Positions 30,382-38,584 of a stretch of DNA of 64,000 bases are shown piece after piece. The stretch is from Dehalococcoidia bacterium (GTDB lineage Bacteria; Chloroflexota; Dehalococcoidia; Lucifugimonadales; Australimonadaceae), in the NCBI GenBank assembly GCA_965200975.1, contig OZ241740.1, positions 1,346,636 to 1,410,635 on the forward strand, in the 5' to 3' direction. The position numbers and the translations under genes were made by a program. Numbering within the stretch: position 1 is the first letter of the stretch; each line of letters opens with the position of its first letter. The notes under the pieces are model-generated. The model saw nothing but the letters and a program-made list of their open reading frames with translations, did not search any database and was not told the origin of the DNA.

Positions 30382-32817
30382 TTACGAGCACTCCATCGCG
30401 GCGCGAAGGCTGTTCAAGTTGTCGCGCATGAGGCCGAAGTAGTCCCCGTGCTCGTCCAGTTCGTTCTGGGTAACGCTCTCTATCGCGTGGATCGGGTAGA
30501 CGCCAGCCCCCGTCTCGCGGGCGAGCGACTGTATATTTGCGCCGGAGAGCACGGGCTCCAGCAGCACCGCCGTGATGCCGAGATCCTTGATGCGATCGGC
30601 GATGCTGGCGAGGCGCTGCGCCGACGGCTCTGTTTCCGGGGAGAGGCCGGCGACTCCTACCTGTTCCAGGTCGTACGCTAGCGCGATGTAGCCGTATGCA
30701 GAGTGAGACGTGACGAACTCGCGGTGGGCGCACGATCTGAGGCCCGCCTCGAACTCGACGTGCAATGCCCGGAGTTCGGAGGAGAGCGCGGCGAGATTCG
30801 CCCGGTAGAAGTCGGCGCCTTCCGGGTCCGCCTGGATGAACGCCTCGGCTATGCGCTCCGCCTGGATGATGGCGCGCAGCGGGTCGAGCCAGAAGTGAGG
30901 GTCGAACTCGCCGTGATCGTGTTCGTGGTGTTCGTCCTCGTCTTCGTGCGCGTGCTCATCCTCGTGCTCGTGCGCTTCACTTTCACCGAGGACGCCGACG
31001 AAGGCGACGCCACTGGGGGAACCGCCGACGCGCCATTCCTCCTCGATCTCCATGTGTTCGAGATGGACCCCGAGGACATGACCGCTATTCGGGTCGGCGA
31101 GGAAGAGCATTTCGCCTACGACGATCATCGAGGGCGAGGGCCGTCCAAACACCCTCTCGAATGGGCCGACCAACTGCATGGTCCCGACCAATTCGCCGTC
31201 GTGAGAGTCGACAGCGCGCAGGACGCCGTCAGCGGCGAGCGTGTAGAAAGTTTCGCCGTCGCTCGAGAACGCAGCAGTGACGCTGGGCTCGGGGATCACC
31301 TCGCGCAATTCGCGGTTGACCACGTCAACCAACCAGACGCCGCCGAGCTCACAGCACTCACCGTCAGGGAAGATGGTCGCAGGGGCGAAGAAGTTGTCGC
31401 TGTCACGGTGTCCGTAGAAGAGGCCGAGCGCGACCTCCCCACCCGTCTCCTCTGGATAGGGAATGATCTCATGCTCGTACTGCCCGTCGTGCCACTGTAC
31501 GAACAGCACTCCGCCGAAGCAGCCGAAGACGGCGCCGTGCGCGTTGTGCGATTCGCCATGCAGGCCCGGGCAGGAGTTGTTGGCTGCGTCGTAGACGACT
31601 TCATTGTCGAACGTGCGCACAACAACGCCCAGTGGCAGGCAGTCGCCTGATGGGATGAACTCAGTGCAGAGCGGGTTGTTGACAGACATGATGACGTGTT
31701 CATCGGATATCGCGAACCCAGTGCCGTGCTGGATTCCGGCCTCAAGCACGATTGGTTCGTAATCGCCGCGTGAGCTCGCCAAGTCCTCCTCGTTGATCAG
31801 AATCACGTGACCGTTGGTGTCGGCGAAGATGGCGGTCCAGCCGTGGCTGTTGACGGAGTGGACCGGCCACTCTTCGACGATCTCAAGCGAGTGGCGTGAG
31901 ACGGGCTCACTAATCAGGTCGTAGTGATCACCGTGGGGGACGTAGAACACGCCGCCGTCGAAGATGTGAATGCGGTCGTCGCCACTTTCGGGTCCTCGAG
32001 CGAGGACGAAGCCGTAGCGGTGCGTGAGGCTGGGGTAGATTGACGCGTTGGGCCCGGCAATTTCGAAGATTCCGCTCTCAACACCACCGGTCCCCAGATC
32101 GATTACGGAGAGGCTCGCTTCCACCCCGTCCGCAACGAGCAGCCGGCCTATGTGGCCGTGCTCATCCTCTTCCATGCTCCCATGCTCGTCTTCGTGCGCG
32201 TGTTCGTCTTCGTGGCCGTGCCCATGCTCATCCGCGAACGGGACCGCCGCCTCCGCGTACGCAGCCTCGACGACGATGCCGGACACCTCGTCGCCCAGGG
32301 ATTCGAGCACGCGCTCCATCCACAGCTCCAACCCCAGGCCGTTCATTGCCACCACGTCGGCCTCACTGATCGCGCGGATGTCACGCGGCGTGAGCTCGAA
32401 CCCGTGGGCCTCGGCCCCGGGCGGCACGAGGACCCGCGAGTTCACGCGGTCGCCGCCGACGCGCTCGGCGAAGTACTGCATCGGATAGATGCTTGCCACC
32501 GTGCTCAGCGGCTCGGTCGCGCTGACCGGCGTGCTTGTAGGCGGAGGGCTAGCGGGGGTGTTTGTCGGCGGAGGGCTAGTAGGGGTGTTTGTGGGCGGAG
32601 GGCTAGCGGGGGTGTTTGTCGGCGGAGGGCTAGTAGGGGTGTTTGTGGGCGGAGGGCTAGCGGGGGTGTTTGTCGGCGGAGGGCTACTGGGGGCGTCCGT
32701 GGGCGGAGGGTTGGCGGGCGTGTTCGTGGGCTCTGCATCTCCCGAGCAGGCAACGACCGCCAGGGCCAGCGTCCCGACGACGAGCAGATGGCGCAAACTA
32801 TTGAGAGCATATCTCAT
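30382..32817 (-). CDS. ZnuA/TroA-type (cluster A-I) metal-binding lipoprotein with ~390-aa beta-propeller-like insertion flanked by two His/Asp/Glu tracts
   Basis: Lipobox VVAC, then PT 9-aa repeats. N-lobe: YPMQYFAERVGGDRV..VPPGAEAHGFELTPRD. C-lobe: GEFDPHFWLDP..SHSAYGY..EPSAQRLASIADRIKDLGITAVLLEP. The insert spans aa ~196-638. Confidence 0.8.
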   Translation of the reverse strand: MRYALNSLRHLLVVGTLALAVVACSGDAEPTNTPANPPPTDAPSSPPPTNTPASPPPTNTPTSPPPTNTPASPPPTNTPTSPPPTNTPASPPPTSTPVSATEPLSTVASIYPMQYFAERVGGDRVNSRVLVPPGAEAHGFELTPRDIRAISEADVVAMNGLGLELWMERVLESLGDEVSGIVVEAAYAEAAVPFADEHGHGHEDEHAHEDEHGSMEEDEHGHIGRLLVADGVEASLSVIDLGTGGVESGIFEIAGPNASIYPSLTHRYGFVLARGPESGDDRIHIFDGGVFYVPHGDHYDLISEPVSRHSLEIVEEWPVHSVNSHGWTAIFADTNGHVILINEEDLASSRGDYEPIVLEAGIQHGTGFAISDEHVIMSVNNPLCTEFIPSGDCLPLGVVVRTFDNEVVYDAANNSCPGLHGESHNAHGAVFGCFGGVLFVQWHDGQYEHEIIPYPEETGGEVALGLFYGHRDSDNFFAPATIFPDGECCELGGVWLVDVVNRELREVIPEPSVTAAFSSDGETFYTLAADGVLRAVDSHDGELVGTMQLVGPFERVFGRPSPSMIVVGEMLFLADPNSGHVLGVHLEHMEIEEEWRVGGSPSGVAFVGVLGESEAHEHEDEHAHEDEDEHHEHDHGEFDPHFWLDPLRAIIQAERIAEAFIQADPEGADFYRANLAALSSELRALHVEFEAGLRSCAHREFVTSHSAYGYIALAYDLEQVGVAGLSPETEPSAQRLASIADRIKDLGITAVLLEPVLSGANIQSLARETGAGVYPIHAIESVTQNELDEHGDYFGLMRDNLNSLRAAMECS
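32540..32728 (-). repeat. seven tandem 27-nt units (five near-identical) encoding the (S/T)PPPTNTP(A/T) linker
   Basis: ggcggagggctagcgggggtgtttgtc alternates with ggcggagggctagtaggggtgtttgtg (54-nt super-unit). The last two units are diverged. Confidence 0.9.
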
Positions 32818-33082
32818 TTAAGGCGAGCCTCCTGTTTGGCTATAGGGCAGGCGTCAGTGTGAGTGCGCCCGGGTCCCGCGCATATGCGTGTCCGCGCCGC
32901 CTCGATTGCTTTCCAGACAGCCGTCGCAGCGGCGGTATAACGTCAGCCGGCGCCCAATGCGTCCGCCTCTCCAGGGATCTTGCTAGAGGACGCCGGCATC
33001 TCCAAGCAAGCGCAGCGCGGGGTAGGCAGTCGTCCGACCTAGGCGCGAACTATCGGGTTCTTCGGGACCAGGACCCTGAATC

Positions 33083-33123
33083 AGACAGTAGGACTGTCTT
33101 CACGTCCCGTCAATACTTAGTAT
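33083..33123. promoter_or_regulatory. two adjacent palindromes in an AT-rich island of a 568-bp divergent intergenic region
   Basis: AGACAGT-agg-ACTGTCT (33083-33099) and ATACT-t-AGTAT (33113-33123), both perfect. Confidence 0.3.
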
Positions 33124-33384
33124 CAATAACGAGCAAGAATGATACGCCCTACGACCTCACGCAGTAGGTGATGGGGAGGGTTTACAGGCCCCTGCCTGCG
33201 CCGGAGGCATAGCCTTCCCCCGTCTTCGGAGAAGAAGGCCGGATCCCTGCGCCCCAAGCCTCCCCACTCCTGTGGGGAGGGGGTTTGGAACGTCTCACTC
33301 CAGAGGGAAGCCCATGGTTGGCGCGTTGTGCGCCTGCGGCTTATGCGATAGTCTCGCCCCATCTCGCTGAGGAGGGCGACCGCT

Positions 33385-34539
33385 ATGGTTATGCAAGGCA
33401 CCGATATGAAGGTCGCGGAGACCCCAACCACCGGGCTCCAGGACTTCCGCATCCCCGACGCCTACGAGGACTGGCTCGAGAGCGAGGGCGTCATGGTGCA
33501 CAAGACTTTCTACATCCCCAACTGGCACGAGGTCGAGGTCGGCCCATGGGAGCGCAAGGGCGGCGAAGGCGCCGTCGTCCACATCGACAACCCGCTCCTG
33601 CCGAACGACCTCCACGTCGTCGACATCAGGCCCGGCGGCAAGTCCGAGCCCGAGCACCATATGTACGAGATCAACTTCTATGTCGTGCAAGGCCGCGGCG
33701 CCACCACTGTCTGGATGGACGAGAACAGCAAGCAGACCTTCGAGTGGAAGGCCGGCTCTCTCTTCACCATCCCCCTCAACGCTTGGTACCAGCACTTCAA
33801 CGGCTCCGGCGACGAGAAGGTGCGCTATATGGCCACCACTAACGCCCCGCCGATGATGCGCCTCTTCCGCGACACCGACTTTATATTCAACAACGACTTC
33901 ATGTTCCGCTCCCGCTACTCCGACGACGAGACCTACTTCTCCGGCAACGGGACGCTCTACAACAAGCGCATCTGGGAGACCAACTTCATCCCCAACGCGC
34001 CCGATATGGCCCTCTACGGGTGGAAGGAGCGCGGCGCCGGCGGCATCAACGCCATGCTCCAGATGGGCAAGAACGATATGGGCAACCACATCTCCGAGTT
34101 CCCCATCGGCACCTACAAGAAGGCCCACCGCCACGGCCCCGGCGCCCACCTCTTCCTGCTCAGCGGCGACTCCGGTTTCTCGCTGCTCTGGACGAAGGAC
34201 GACCGGTCGGACATGGTGAAGTGCGATTGGCAGATCGGGTCGATCGTCATCATCCCGAATGACGGCACCTACCACCAGCACTTCAACTCCGGCACGAAGC
34301 GCGCCCGCTACATGGCGCTCCGGGACGGGAAGGGCGGCTTCATCGCTCCCAATACGCCGGTTGGCGGCGACGTCTCGATCAAGGACGGCGGCATGCAGAT
34401 CGAGTACGAGGACGAAGACCGCGAGATCCACGAGATCTTCGAGGCCGAGCTCGCCAAGTCCGGCGCCCAGTGCAATATGAAGGCGTTCATCCCGTACTGC
34501 ACCGGCGTCGCCGGCGTCACCAGCGAGCGCGACACCTAA
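33385..34539 (+). CDS. bicupin, gentisate-1,2-dioxygenase-like family (paralog 1 of 3)
   Basis: N-cupin: PGGKSEPEHHMYE..WYQHFN. C-cupin: YKKAHRHGPGAHL..DGTYHQHFN (3-His type). Conserved tail GGMQIEYEDEDREIHEIFE..CNMKAFIPYCTG..SERDT. Confidence 0.7.
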   Translation: MVMQGTDMKVAETPTTGLQDFRIPDAYEDWLESEGVMVHKTFYIPNWHEVEVGPWERKGGEGAVVHIDNPLLPNDLHVVDIRPGGKSEPEHHMYEINFYVVQGRGATTVWMDENSKQTFEWKAGSLFTIPLNAWYQHFNGSGDEKVRYMATTNAPPMMRLFRDTDFIFNNDFMFRSRYSDDETYFSGNGTLYNKRIWETNFIPNAPDMALYGWKERGAGGINAMLQMGKNDMGNHISEFPIGTYKKAHRHGPGAHLFLLSGDSGFSLLWTKDDRSDMVKCDWQIGSIVIIPNDGTYHQHFNSGTKRARYMALRDGKGGFIAPNTPVGGDVSIKDGGMQIEYEDEDREIHEIFEAELAKSGAQCNMKAFIPYCTGVAGVTSERDT

Positions 34540-34551
34540 GCGCGGCATTGG

Positions 34552-34604
34552 CGCCCGCCTCTCCTCCGAAAGCAGAGCAGAGCGGAAGGGGAGAGGCGGG
34601 CGCG
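34552..34604 (+). terminator. long hairpin after bicupin 1 (14-bp perfect outer stem GCGCCCGCCTCTCC/GGAGAGGCGGGCGC plus inner TCCG/CGGA)
   Basis: Read directly from the sequence, 13 nt after the stop. No U tract. Confidence 0.4.
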
Positions 34605-34662
34605 AGCAAAGGCGCCCGGCGGTTACACATTCTCCCTTCTTCGGAAGGAGCACGGACGGCCA

Positions 34663-35130
34663 ATGAAATACCAAGGCAAGGTTGAATTCGCGGCCCAGCC
34701 GCTCACGGTGTGGAACACCGTGCTCGATATGGAGCAGTTCGTCGCCTGCTTCCCCGGCGTCGACGACATCGTCATGGTCGATGACCGCACGTTCGAGGGG
34801 GGAATGAAGGCGCAGGTCGGCCCTGTGGCCGGGGACTTCACGTTCCGCGCCCAGATCGTCGAGGCGGAAGAGCCGGTGCGGCTCCGGGCCGAAGTCGTCG
34901 GCGAGGACTCGCTCACCAAGAGCCAGATGACCGCCGACATCGAAATGAGCCTGGCGCCGCTGGGCGCCGACCGCGCTCAACTCTCCTACCTCTCGGAAGT
35001 GCGCATCAAAGGCAGGCTCGGCATCGTCGGCGATATGATCATCAGAGCGACCGGGGCGCAGGTCATCGAAGAATTCTTTCGCCGGCTGCGCGTCCGGGTG
35101 GAACCATCGGAAACCGGCGCGGAGGCCTGA
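34663..35130 (+). CDS. SRPBCC/CoxG-family protein
   Basis: 155 aa. ..PLTVWNTVLDMEQFVACFPGV..GPVAGDFTF..IKGRLGIVGDMII.. resembles carbon monoxide dehydrogenase subunit G-like proteins. Confidence 0.6.
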   Translation: MKYQGKVEFAAQPLTVWNTVLDMEQFVACFPGVDDIVMVDDRTFEGGMKAQVGPVAGDFTFRAQIVEAEEPVRLRAEVVGEDSLTKSQMTADIEMSLAPLGADRAQLSYLSEVRIKGRLGIVGDMIIRATGAQVIEEFFRRLRVRVEPSETGAEA

Positions 35131-35137
35131 ACCCGCC

Positions 35138-36655
35138 ATGACGCAACAGCGCGCATTCGACGTCATCGTTATCGGAGGCGGCTCCGCCGGCTGCGCGGCT
35201 GCCGCGCGCCTCAGCGAAGACCCGAACCGGCGTGTGCTCCTGCTCGAGGCCGGCCCTGATCCGCAGCCGCAGCCTCCCGAGATCGCCAGCGGCGACCGCG
35301 CCGCTCGCGTCGTCCTCGAATCGCCCTATGTCGTCCTCTACGAAACGGAGCGCGCCAGCGGAGACGGCGCCTTCTACAACGTCAGCGGGCGCGTTATGGG
35401 CGGCGGGTCGTCCGTCAACGCTATGGCGGTCGTCCGGCCTACGCGCCATGACCTCGACACCTGGGCTGCTCTCGGCAACCCCGGCTGGTCTTACGACGAT
35501 TGCCTCCCGATTCTCAAGCGCCTCGAGACCGACGCCGACTACGGCGACCACGACATTCACGGCAACGAGGGGCCGCTCTACGCCCAGCGCCTCTTCCGCC
35601 TCGACATGGACGCGTCCGAGCCGGTGCAGGCTTTCATCGACCGCGCCGTTAGTATGGGCCTGCCTATCTGCCCCGACCTTAACGTTCCCGACCCCTTCGG
35701 GGTCTGCGGCTCCGCGTACAACGTCAAGGACGGCGTCCGGCAGTCCACGGTTGTCGCCTACCTCGACCCCGCCCGCGGGCGCCCCAACCTGGAGATCGTC
35801 GCCGGCGCTCCTGTTCACGCGCTTCGGTTCGCCAGCGGCCGTGTCTCGGAAGTCGTTTACCGGCAGGGAAGCAGCCTCGTCTCCGCCGCGGCGGAGAGCG
35901 TCGTCCTCAGCGCCGGCGTTTACCACAGCCCGCAGATACTCACCCTCTCGGGCATTGGCCGCGAGGAAGAGCTGCGCCGCCTTGGCGTTCCTCCTGTGCT
36001 CATCCGTGAAGGCGTAGGCGAGAACTACCAGGATCACGCAACCCTCACGATGACGTACGAGGGCCGTTCGGATTTCGACCCCGACTGGGTGATCCCGCGC
36101 TTCCGTCTGATGTACAAGAGCGACCCCGGCCTGCCGTGCGGCAACTTCCACATCTTCCAGCGCCCGCCCACCATCATCGAGGGTATGAAGCGGATGATGC
36201 CCGTCTCCGCGAACCTCGTCGAGCAGCGCGCCCGCGGAAGCATCCGCTTCAACAGCGCGAACCCGGACGACACTCCTGAAATCCTCGACGCGATGCTCAA
36301 GCATCCCGACGACCTCAAGGCGATGCTGACCGCTATGGAGTTCATCCACGAGCTCGTCAGCGACGAGTCGATGGAGGCGTACTACGGCCCGCTGCTCTCT
36401 CCTTCCTCAGGCGAGGACTGGACGGAGTTCGCGCTCGGCGCGCACGCCTCGTACCATCACGGAGTCGGCACCTGCAAGATGGGCCCGGCGTCCGACCCTC
36501 TGGCCGTTGTCGGCAACGACCTCAAGGCTCACGGCGTCGACAACCTCTACGTCGCCGACGCCTCCATAATGCCGACTACCCCCCATGCCAACACCAATGT
36601 AACCGCCATTATGATCGGCGAGCGCCTGTCGGACATCATCAAGGCGCAAGACTAG
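35138..36655 (+). CDS. GMC-family FAD oxidoreductase (choline dehydrogenase-like)
   Basis: DVIVIGGGSAGCAAAARLSED..LLLEAGP, and C-terminal SYHHGVGTCKMG..VADASIMP. Confidence 0.85.
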   Translation: MTQQRAFDVIVIGGGSAGCAAAARLSEDPNRRVLLLEAGPDPQPQPPEIASGDRAARVVLESPYVVLYETERASGDGAFYNVSGRVMGGGSSVNAMAVVRPTRHDLDTWAALGNPGWSYDDCLPILKRLETDADYGDHDIHGNEGPLYAQRLFRLDMDASEPVQAFIDRAVSMGLPICPDLNVPDPFGVCGSAYNVKDGVRQSTVVAYLDPARGRPNLEIVAGAPVHALRFASGRVSEVVYRQGSSLVSAAAESVVLSAGVYHSPQILTLSGIGREEELRRLGVPPVLIREGVGENYQDHATLTMTYEGRSDFDPDWVIPRFRLMYKSDPGLPCGNFHIFQRPPTIIEGMKRMMPVSANLVEQRARGSIRFNSANPDDTPEILDAMLKHPDDLKAMLTAMEFIHELVSDESMEAYYGPLLSPSSGEDWTEFALGAHASYHHGVGTCKMGPASDPLAVVGNDLKAHGVDNLYVADASIMPTTPHANTNVTAIMIGERLSDIIKAQD

Positions 36656-37263: not shown

Positions 37264-38478
37264 CTAGAGGGTCAGCTCCAAGATGTAGAGCCCGCCCTTC
37301 AGGCGATCCACCACGTACATAATGCCGTTCTCGTCCACGTAGACGTCGTTGATCCCGTTGGACGCCGCCCCTTCCGGGATAGGCGGCACAAAGTACGCTA
37401 CCTCCTCCGGCTGGAACGGGTTGCTCGTGTCGAACACCCGAACGCCGGCGTTGAAGAACGTGCCGAATATCAGCGTGTCGGACTGGAAGCAGGTGGGCCC
37501 CGGCTGGTTCTCGTAGATGTTGTGCGCGCCGAAGCGTCCGGGGCGGTTGAAGAAGTCGTTGGTGTCCGGCATAGGGAAGGTGCTGATGATCACAGGGTTG
37601 GTCTCGTCCCGAATGTCCATCATCCAGATTAGCTTGGGGTAGTCCTCGCCGTTGTTCCGCACCGCCTCCTGCGTCACCACCATCAAGTCCCGGCTGAACA
37701 GAGGCAGCGCAGTGTGGGTGAACCCGGGGAAGGGCGGCGCGTAGTTGAGCCGGCTCACGACCGTGGGGTTGGCCTTGTCGGAGATATCGAGGATGGCTAT
37801 CCCGGAGTCCAGGTAGGCGCAGTAGGCGCGGTCGGGACGTTGGGGATAGACGTTGGCGTTGTGCAGTCGATGCCCGGAGTCGAACTGGGGATGCCGCCGC
37901 ACAGGCGGGGCGTCGTCTCTTTCCCGGGTTCCGGGAACCCACCAGCGTCCTGCTTCCGCCGGACGGGCAGGGTCTCTGACGTCGACAATCATGTAGAACT
38001 GGTCGTCCTTCTGGTCGCGCGGTTGAAAATCAGCCGCGCCGGTGGAGAGATGGGCGTACTCCCCATCCACCCACCAGAGAACGTGACAGCCCCGCGAGTA
38101 GGGGCCGCCCGTGTCGAAGAAGCTGATTCGTTTCGGGCCGTCCGCGCTGCCGATGTCGTAGACGCCCATCCCCGTACCGGGCTGCCCGGGATCCAGCGAC
38201 TGATAGGCCACCAGCATTGTGTCGTCCACAATGGAGAGGGAATTGGAGCGCAGATGGGGGTAGTCCAGCTCAGTCTGCACCGTCACCCTGGGGTTGGCGA
38301 TGTCGGTGACGTCCACGCCGGTGATGTCCTTGGGCGCGCTCTCATGGGCCATATAGAGGATGCGGCGTCCCTCTTTCGTCTGATGGAGATGCACTCCTTC
38401 GCCGATGTTGCCGAAGCCGTTGAGGTCGTGGTGCGAGATGAGCCACATATTGCGGATTTCCTGCGTTTGAGTAGCCAT
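37264..38478 (-). CDS. LVIVD-repeat beta-propeller protein
   Basis: ATG 38478 follows AAGGAG. Recurring xxxxD(I/V)xxPxxP blades (VDVTDIANPRV, MIVDVRDPARP, IAILDISDKANP, WMMDIRDETNP, VRVFDTSNPFQP). Confidence 0.6.
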   Translation of the reverse strand: MATQTQEIRNMWLISHHDLNGFGNIGEGVHLHQTKEGRRILYMAHESAPKDITGVDVTDIANPRVTVQTELDYPHLRSNSLSIVDDTMLVAYQSLDPGQPGTGMGVYDIGSADGPKRISFFDTGGPYSRGCHVLWWVDGEYAHLSTGAADFQPRDQKDDQFYMIVDVRDPARPAEAGRWWVPGTRERDDAPPVRRHPQFDSGHRLHNANVYPQRPDRAYCAYLDSGIAILDISDKANPTVVSRLNYAPPFPGFTHTALPLFSRDLMVVTQEAVRNNGEDYPKLIWMMDIRDETNPVIISTFPMPDTNDFFNRPGRFGAHNIYENQPGPTCFQSDTLIFGTFFNAGVRVFDTSNPFQPEEVAYFVPPIPEGAASNGINDVYVDENGIMYVVDRLKGGLYILELTL

Positions 38479-38584
38479 AGCGTCTCCTTTAGCGTGGCCT
38501 CGCGCCCTGCGCCGCACAAGCTACCAGCAAACCCGCTTGTCCGCCACGCCGTCCTTATTGTTGCGCAAGCGCCCAGAGCGGAAA

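Follow-up and report, generated by a model that had tools for sequence, protein, structure and literature searches.

A predicted zinc-binding lipoprotein of a Dehalococcoidia bacterium with an AztD-type beta-propeller domain nested in its His-rich loop

A 64,000-nucleotide stretch of contig OZ241740.1 from a Dehalococcoidia bacterium (GCA_965200975.1) was analysed and is called the window below. Its subject here is one open reading frame (ORF) of 811 amino acids (aa), which occupies 30382..32817 on the minus strand with the stop codon at 30382-30384. The gene is predicted to encode a lipoprotein, i.e., a cluster A-I zinc substrate-binding protein (SBP) carrying an AztD domain in its His-rich loop. 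An earlier note, made from the sequence without database searches, had described this ORF without stating its strand; the ORF is real and lies on the minus strand. When 30382-32817 was read on the plus strand, no ORF was obtained and the translation was full of stop codons. The GC content at third codon positions (GC3) is 0.79, which matches the other genuine genes of the window (window GC 65%), and a Shine-Dalgarno sequence, AGGAGG, was found 10 nt upstream of the ATG.

All parts of the gene are given here on the minus strand. The protein begins with a signal peptide and lipobox (aa 1-24, ...LALAVVAC; 32746..32817), predicted by AlphaFold2 (AF2) to form a helix at residues 2-23. The conservation of residues was read from a set of 94 homologous sequences, with identity to the window protein down to 48%, and the lipobox residue C24 is invariant in this set. 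A Pro/Thr-rich stalk follows (aa 25-99, with the PT-rich linker at aa 29-99; 32521..32745), which is predicted to be disordered and is encoded by tandemly repeated units of 27/54 bp (32531-32731). The SBP N-lobe (aa 100-195; 32233..32520) holds the first zinc ligand, H138, and is connected to the first AztD strand by His tract 1, DEHGHGHEDEHAHEDEHGSMEEDEHGH (aa 196-222, 8 His; 32152..32232). After the AztD-type beta-propeller domain (aa 223-612; 30982..32151), His tract 2, SEAHEHEDEHAHEDEDEHHEHDHGE (aa 613-637, 8 His; 30907..30981), begins 5 residues past the last AztD strand and leads to the ligand segment of the SBP. Both tracts were classified as disordered linkers. The SBP C-lobe (aa 638-811; 30385..30906) includes FDPHFWLDP, i.e., D-P-H641-F-W, and the ligands H705 and E780. 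Two His of tract 2, H633 and H635, are invariant and stand 6-8 residues ahead of the ligand H641. The residue boundaries given in the earlier note for the signal peptide with VVAC, PT linker, lobes, tracts, and insert were all exact.

The insert was recognized by profile and structure comparison with AztD, a zinc chaperone. Of the 356 positions in the NCBIfam AztD model NF038015, 1-354 aligned with aa 228-607, at E 6e-29 with the whole protein and E 7.5e-30 with the insert alone. By phmmer against the sequences of the Protein Data Bank (PDB), the insert matched the AztD entries 6ck1 (P. denitrificans) and 6cmk (C. koseri) at E ~1e-14. A Pfam search with the insert alone gave just a sub-threshold PQQ_2/BamB match (E 0.03). 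AztD is absent from the Pfam models, and its recognition therefore needed NCBIfam and a comparison of structures.

An AF2 model was built from the 94-sequence family alignment. The predicted local distance difference test score (pLDDT) was ~85-97 for the insert and both lobes, and the insert was modelled as all-beta with ~35 strands. At residues 188-219 and 615-638 the pLDDT fell below 50, and the two His tracts are therefore predicted to be flexible tethers. In a Foldseek search against the PDB, ranks 1-9 were all AztD structures (6cmk, 6n01, 6ck1; template modelling (TM) score 0.83-0.85, root-mean-square deviation (rmsd) ~3 A, E 1e-23 to 1e-28), and ZnuA-type SBPs were listed after them. The predicted fold thus agrees with the eight-bladed AztD propeller. 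The suggestion of a propeller made from the letters of the DNA is in line with these top nine matches and with the confident model, and the more specific suggestion of an AztD-like domain is supported by the end-to-end profile match and the conserved AztD metal ligands.

The ligand residues of AztD were taken from a published list (PMC6689063). Site 2 of P. denitrificans AztD (PdAztD), i.e., H99-G100-x-H102-x-D104, corresponds to H295-G296-D297-H298-Y-D300 of the window protein. The site 1 residues H124, H167, and H218 correspond to H320, H364, and H420, and the disulfide C214-C231 to C416-C433. H295, D297, H298, D300, H320, H364, C416, H420, and C433 are invariant in the 94 sequences. Four extra cysteines are present in the insert (aa 384, 393, 488, and 489), in CTEFIPSGDC and as a vicinal CC in DGECCELGG. 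They are shared within the AztD subtype of the window protein and absent from the other subtype and from the relative P0007, and they may form an extra disulfide or a metal site.

The SBP part was assigned by Pfam to ZnuA (PF01297) with 279.7 bits against a cut-off of 29. The match comes in two stretches around the insert, which confirms the two SBP lobes proposed earlier. With His tracts on both sides of the propeller and the ZnuA match interrupted by it, the proposal of a split His-rich loop that brackets the propeller was also borne out. None of H138, H641, and H705 varies in the family set. E780 aligns with Glu279 of AdcA, and across the wider family this position is mostly Ser or Gly. When the insert was removed, the best NCBIfam model was AztC (NF040870, 192 bits, cut-off 350), followed by MntC (158 bits), ZnuA (121 bits), and AdcA (120 bits), all under their equivalog cut-offs. 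The AdcA model NF033605, whose cut-off is 700 bits, reached 141 bits through its ZnuA part only, and no ZinT domain was matched in the window protein by Pfam and NCBIfam scans. In the Foldseek search, AztC (5w57) aligned over both lobes across the insert with a TM score of 0.81, and the SBP fold is therefore predicted to be intact around the insert. The C-lobe matched many SBPs with rmsd 1.6-2.4, and AF2 placed helices at 646-663 and 665-694 between the lobes. The SBP part is thus predicted to be a zinc-specific cluster A-I protein nearest to AztC, AdcA, and YcdH, with a putative His3+Glu site of H138, H641, H705, and E780. At the level of sequence and structure prediction, the identity of both domains, their ligands, and the architecture are well supported.

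Relatives were numerous. A search of 5.8 billion protein clusters returned more than 330 relatives at E <= 1e-20, mostly of 750-810 aa, named merely as zinc ABC (ATP-binding cassette) transporter substrate-binding protein or hypothetical protein; one of them was from Ca. Palauibacter (Gemmatimonadota). A scan of GTDB species genomes returned 536 relatives. The best 80 of these 536 were nearly all from Chloroflexota metagenome-assembled genomes (MAGs), i.e., Dehalococcoidia and Caldilineaceae, with one Acidimicrobiia MAG; SAR202 was named among the Chloroflexota hosts elsewhere than in these 80. Many source MAGs carry names of the types SB066x_bin, IRCx_bin, RHOx_bin, and COS1_bin, which resemble those of marine sponge-microbiome bins. 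The Acidimicrobiia and Ca. Palauibacter members may have arisen by lateral transfer within such communities.

Architectures were classified with domain hidden Markov models (HMMs) made from the family and run on 120 proteins and the ORFs of the homolog loci. The order SBP N-lobe, AztD, SBP C-lobe was found in 182 sequences, nearly all of them from Chloroflexota MAGs; some lie on chromosomes of 2-6 Mb that independent projects assembled as single contigs. The insertion is thus conserved in homologs (at least 182 sequences with the same domain order), one of the points raised for checking in the earlier note. Because this order recurs in so many sequences, among them complete long-read MAG chromosomes, the 811-aa ORF is neither a chance ORF nor a chimera. 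Four complete proteins have two AztD modules in tandem between the lobes (P0005, P0006, P0038, and L069:9941-13621); P0005, of 1376 aa, is present on four independent contigs. His-rich tracts bound each module in the relatives with two AztD domains. Six insert-free SBPs adjoin fused ones (L081:13999-15300, L062:12079-13182, L027:3124-4425, L017, L023, and L026), and in these paralogs the position of AztD is taken by (D/E/H)n loops of 60-170 residues. Standalone AztD lipoproteins were also found, three with a double module (P0003/P0004/L009, ~990 aa) and three with a single one.

By an exhaustive HMMER search over 1.84 billion representatives, the AztD superfamily proved small, with 548 clusters at E <= 1e-3. 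In six distant members, with AztD domains 24-33% identical to that of the window protein, ZnuA is likewise split by an internal AztD, and the nested design therefore appears to be either old or recurrent. Two other chains were observed in the survey. In P0178 (637 aa), a ZinT domain (aa 61-224) precedes AztD (aa 272-629), i.e., two zinc chaperone types in one chain. P0155 (680 aa, Verrucomicrobiales), named TIGR03769 domain-containing in its source, has AztD at the C-terminus.

Genes for a transporter were searched for in the window and at the homolog loci. By tblastn with ZnuB, ZnuC, and CobW from the homolog loci, no ABC-3 permease, ABC ATPase, or CobW was detected in the 64-kb window, and Pfam scans found no transporter partner among 30 neighbouring genes. 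The absence of an adjacent permease or ATPase gene reported in the earlier note thus holds across the whole window. Among 82 homolog loci, an ABC-3 permease was encoded within 10 kb in 45, an ABC ATPase in 53, a Fur-family regulator in 38, and cobW in 10. A Caldilineaceae chromosome has the operon fusedSBP-znuC-znuB-x-cobW-WD40-zur-cobW-cobW, and a Dehalococcoidia genome has the order fusedSBP...zur-(insert-free SBP)-znuC-znuB.

Upstream of the gene, a conserved promoter was predicted at 33085..33125 on the minus strand. Its Zur-type box, TGATACTAAGTATTG (33125-33111), overlaps the -35 element TTGACG (33113-33108), which is followed by a 17-nt spacer and the -10 element TACTGT (33090-33085). 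The promoter was found by homology with locus L083 and eight other loci; a scan with the sigma-70 consensus gave no promoters, and an Rfam scan of the 5' region gave chance matches below threshold only. Another palindrome, AGACAGTcctACTGTCT (33083-33099), which overlaps the conserved -10 element TACTGT, was considered as an operator and rejected, as the palindrome itself is unconserved in L083. In 1.66 Mb of homolog loci (L001-L083), the palindrome TGATACnnnGTATCA, with one mismatch or less, has 39 copies. The stretches that immediately precede fused SBP or zur genes make up 9% of this sequence and contain 35 of the 39 (binomial P ~8e-33). We infer that TGATACnnnGTATCA is a candidate Zur box of this Chloroflexota lineage. 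The sole match in the window is the one at 33111-33125 in the SBP-AztD promoter region, where the box has the subfamily form TGATACnnnGTATTGAC. The form TGATACTAAGTATTGAC is standard in nine of nine examined loci that share the SBP backbone type of the window protein. At those nine loci, the box overlaps a -35 TTGACA; a spacer of 17 nt separates this from a TACyGT -10, after which comes the start codon of zur. Written for the subfamily, the box is TGATACnnnGTATTGACA, overlapping the -35 element.

Between the promoter and the SBP gene, a remnant of a Fur-family zur pseudogene was found at 32854..33042 on the minus strand. It retains the recognition-helix segment LGRTTAYPALRLLGDAGVL and the C-terminus IGRRLTLYRRCDGCLESN...HSH*. 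The remnant has an in-frame stop, ~45 codons of the metal-binding core are deleted, and its N-terminal part is unrecognisable. The ~300-bp gap from the box to the ATG exists because this decayed zur lies between them, and zinc control of the window copy therefore hangs on a Zur encoded elsewhere, if any. At the locus of the closest relative, P0007 (L083, 9505-14923), an intact zur, the fused SBP P0007, and a second fused SBP of 799 aa are encoded. These tandem paralogs differ mainly in the inserted module, P0007 having the AztD type of the window protein and the 799-aa SBP the other type.

The lobes and the insert of the window protein have different nearest relatives. Against P0010 and P0016, the SBP lobes are 81% identical whereas the AztD module is 51-53% identical; against P0021, P0022, and L008, the lobes are 33-38% identical whereas the module is 77-79% identical. 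The top AztD match, at 82%, comes from a standalone lipoprotein with two AztD modules and is the second of these. The backbone cluster of the window protein usually pairs with another AztD cluster (16 cases), and its combination of backbone and module was found only in the window protein, P0007, and P0008. Because the identity pattern is reciprocal, differing evolutionary rates cannot account for it; modules must have been exchanged or inserted independently. Computed in 25-residue windows, the identity flips at ~aa 201-226 (nt ~32140-32217) and ~aa 601-626 (nt ~30940-31017), and both switch points are within the His tracts.

The His tracts are internally repetitive at the DNA level and may hypothetically act as recombination sites. 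An 18-nt exact direct repeat, CTCGTCTTCGTGCGCGTG, at 30937-30954 and 32185-32202, encodes HAHEDE on the minus strand and flanks the AztD module. This repeat could be a site of excision or exchange, or it could be the mere codon composition of the tracts. A bolder reading, which we offer tentatively and hold to be possible but not probable, is that AztD is an exchangeable cassette, swapped, duplicated, excised, or inserted via the tracts among divergent SBP backbones and free-standing AztD lipoproteins, and that the protein is a natural one-chain form of the AztD-AztC transfer complex, its site 2 tethered where the SBP site opens.

Zinc transfer from AztD to its partner has been studied with separate proteins. 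AztD passes Zn to AztC from site 2 only, and this site is formed by an extension of the N- and C-terminal strands and a hairpin of blade 2 (PMC6689063, PMC7463823). The transfer requires the flexible loop of AztC and its His; complex formation is slow and rate-limiting, and the best docking model has site 2 in the SBP cleft (PMC6689063, PMC7463823). In the window protein, the site-2 element is where both tethers would leave the propeller, and they would return to the SBP in the loop beside its zinc site. Because of this, an intramolecular AztD-to-AztC hand-off is the most economical explanation. Direct Zn transfer to the SBP gains indirect support from the covalent joining of AztD to a cluster A-I SBP in the very loop used for transfer. 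We consider it quite likely that the protein is a surface-anchored lipoprotein zinc SBP with a complete AztD in its His-rich loop, capturing zinc and handing it over within the chain for ZnuBC-type uptake.

By this mechanism, the AztD module would capture scarce Zn(II) at the transfer-competent site 2. Zinc would move within the chain to the SBP site, probably through the His of tract 2, with H633 and H635 as a possible relay, and the loaded SBP would hand it to a permease of the ZnuBC type whose genes lie in another part of the genome. The fusion would replace the slow bimolecular encounter of AztD and AztC with a tethered step at 1:1 stoichiometry. Chloroflexota are generally held to lack a conventional outer membrane. 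Tethering may be useful where a cell lacks a closed periplasm to keep a soluble chaperone, and by analogy with Gram-positive AdcA, the lack of an outer membrane would favour a tethered over a secreted chaperone.

Several points weigh against the in-chain transfer of zinc for uptake. The NF038015 score is ~101-104 bits against a curated cut-off of 400, the insert is ~20% identical to the characterised AztDs (PdAztD and CkAztD), and it appears to be a distant AztD homolog, not something that the NCBI pipeline would call AztD. PdAztD supplies a fourth site-2 ligand from its C-terminus, His408, to which no specific His of tract 2 could be assigned. The predicted TM score (pTM) of the AF2 model is 0.55, so the orientation of the propeller relative to the SBP cleft is unreliable. 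Since no permease, ATPase, or intact zur lies within the 64 kb, the link of the window copy to transport rests on its homologs. In AdcA, the accessory domain is dispensable for import (PMC7858048). The AztD module may for this reason matter only under severe zinc limitation.

Other explanations of the same architecture were considered. The protein could be a zinc buffer or store at the cell surface and no part of a transporter, the window copy no longer docking on a permease. The missing znuBC in the window, the ~37 of 82 homolog loci that are also without an ABC-3 gene inside 10 kb, the AztD lipoproteins that stand alone, with one or two modules, long His/Asp tracts, and no SBP nearby, and the high metal capacity of 16 linker His plus two AztD sites would all suit such a role. 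However, the three SBP His and DPHFW are invariant and the SBP lobes are normal, which argues for selection on transport competence, and many family members are directly within znuCB operons. SBPs remote from their transporter are also known, e.g., AdcAII and AdcA both feed AdcCB (PMC8416893). A surface buffer is thus unlikely. The same architecture could also import Mn, Fe, or another divalent metal in place of Zn. The second NCBIfam match of the SBP part is the manganese protein MntC with 158 bits, and similarly folded cluster A-I SBPs bind Mn or Fe. However, the ligand set is His-His-His-Glu as in AdcA and AdcAII, not the PsaA-type His2-Glu-Asp, His-rich loops are typical of zinc SBPs, and the inserted domain is of a zinc chaperone type whose zinc ligands are conserved. 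The neighbours of the homologs include a Fur-family regulator and COG0523/CobW, and Neupane et al. tie COG0523/CobW to zinc homeostasis and AztD neighbourhoods. Import of another metal is accordingly judged improbable.

Beta-propellers are common interaction scaffolds, the zinc SBPs Lmb and Lbp are annotated as laminin binders, and many source MAGs have names like those of sponge-microbiome bins, so the propeller might have been re-purposed for adhesion or protein interaction with a host or matrix, with metal handling lost. This is very improbable, as the nine AztD metal-site and disulfide residues are invariant in the family set even at its lowest identity, and the linkage to zur, znuBC, and cobW indicates metal handling. 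The earlier note had itself offered a non-metal ligand of the insert as an alternative, for which no support was found. It is scarcely conceivable that the gene is an assembly or binning chimera of an SBP gene and an AztD gene. The mosaic of lobes and insert with different nearest relatives, and the DNA-level repeats in the His tracts that could mislead an assembler, speak for such an artefact. However, the domain order is the same in the 182 sequences with their single-contig chromosomes from independent projects, P0007 and P0008 share the combination of backbone and module in independent assemblies, and the reading frame is unbroken with uniform codon usage. Neither of the outcomes that the earlier note had named as fatal to its reading was thus found, i.e., an insert that is no propeller or has unconserved ligands, or a chimeric ORF.

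Among known systems, AztABCD of Paracoccus denitrificans and Citrobacter koseri is alike in the AztD propeller with sites 1 and 2 and the disulfide, and in a cluster A-I SBP, AztC being the best match of the SBP part. The His loop of the SBP that is required for transfer is the insertion point in the window protein, and Zur and CobW genes are nearby, for the window family at the homolog loci. In AztABCD, however, AztD is a separate, soluble periplasmic protein that dissociates after transfer, whereas the window protein is one chain; its (D/E/H)n tracts are long where the AztABCD D-loop is short. Further differences are the lipoprotein nature and the PT-rich stalk of the window protein, and its hosts, which are Chloroflexota and not Proteobacteria. 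AdcA of Streptococcus is likewise a lipoprotein zinc SBP with a His-rich loop and a zinc-recruiting accessory domain in one chain, and its site H63/H140/H204/E279 (PMC7858048) is comparable to H138/H641/H705/E780. Its accessory domain is a lipocalin-like ZinT attached C-terminally by an 11-residue linker, whereas AztD is nested in the loop of the window protein. ZnuA of E. coli and Synechocystis, with ZinT in trans, shares the fold, the three His, the acidic His-rich loop directly before D-x-H-x-W, and Zur control. Canonical ZnuA loops have tens of residues and no folded domain, whereas the fused forms hold one or two 390-aa propellers.

The ZnuA-type SBP and AztD families are known, and in functional logic the fused protein resembles AztD/AztC and AdcA; it differs from these in that the topology is nested, in the variants with tandem modules, and in the exchange of modules. 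No description of an AztD-SBP fusion was found in the literature on AztD and zinc, in agreement with the remark in the earlier note that such a fusion had not been seen described, and the sole fusion discussed in that literature is ZinT::ZnuA in AdcA. A literature search on ZnuA in the Chloroflexi and sponge context found nothing. The 2019 survey of AztD homologs was made by BLASTP from PdAztD at E < 1e-20 and would probably have missed inserts of ~20% identity. An annotation gap exists, as generic names are all that no fewer than 182 sequences, probably several hundred, have been given.

The complex in which AztD transfers zinc to AztC is transient, so direct protein-to-protein zinc transfer is poorly understood, and a docking model is the only picture of it. 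AztD nested in the same SBP loop would be independent evolutionary support for the loop-centred transfer model. The fused protein may give a stable single-chain object for crystallography, cryo-EM (electron microscopy), and kinetics, and if it is truly a single-chain transfer complex, direct structural study of the zinc hand-off would become possible. Next to the appended ZinT of AdcA, it would also be a second fusion solution to the same problem, with a nested topology. The mosaic points to a folded domain exchanged through low-complexity linkers, and the candidate Zur box may be a starting point for the zinc regulons of uncultured Chloroflexota.

The other genes around the SBP-AztD gene, from 23378 to 45299, encode five Amidohydro_2 proteins, three cupins, major facilitator superfamily (MFS) transporters, GMC oxidoreductase, CoxG, and short-chain dehydrogenase/reductase (SDR) proteins, and oxidoreductases. 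This region resembles a catabolic gene-rich stretch and has no link to metal uptake. At 37264-38517 on the minus strand, 4.4 kb off, a 417-aa protein with a Pfam LVIVD repeat and a weak NCBIfam choice-of-anchor B match was predicted to be of beta-propeller type and at the surface; by tblastn, no relation of this protein to the AztD insert was detected. A 623-aa ORF at 33295-35166 on the minus strand was rejected as an antisense artefact with no Pfam match and a nonsense composition. The genuine gene opposite to it is a plus-strand cupin at 33385-34539, with a GC3 of 0.93.

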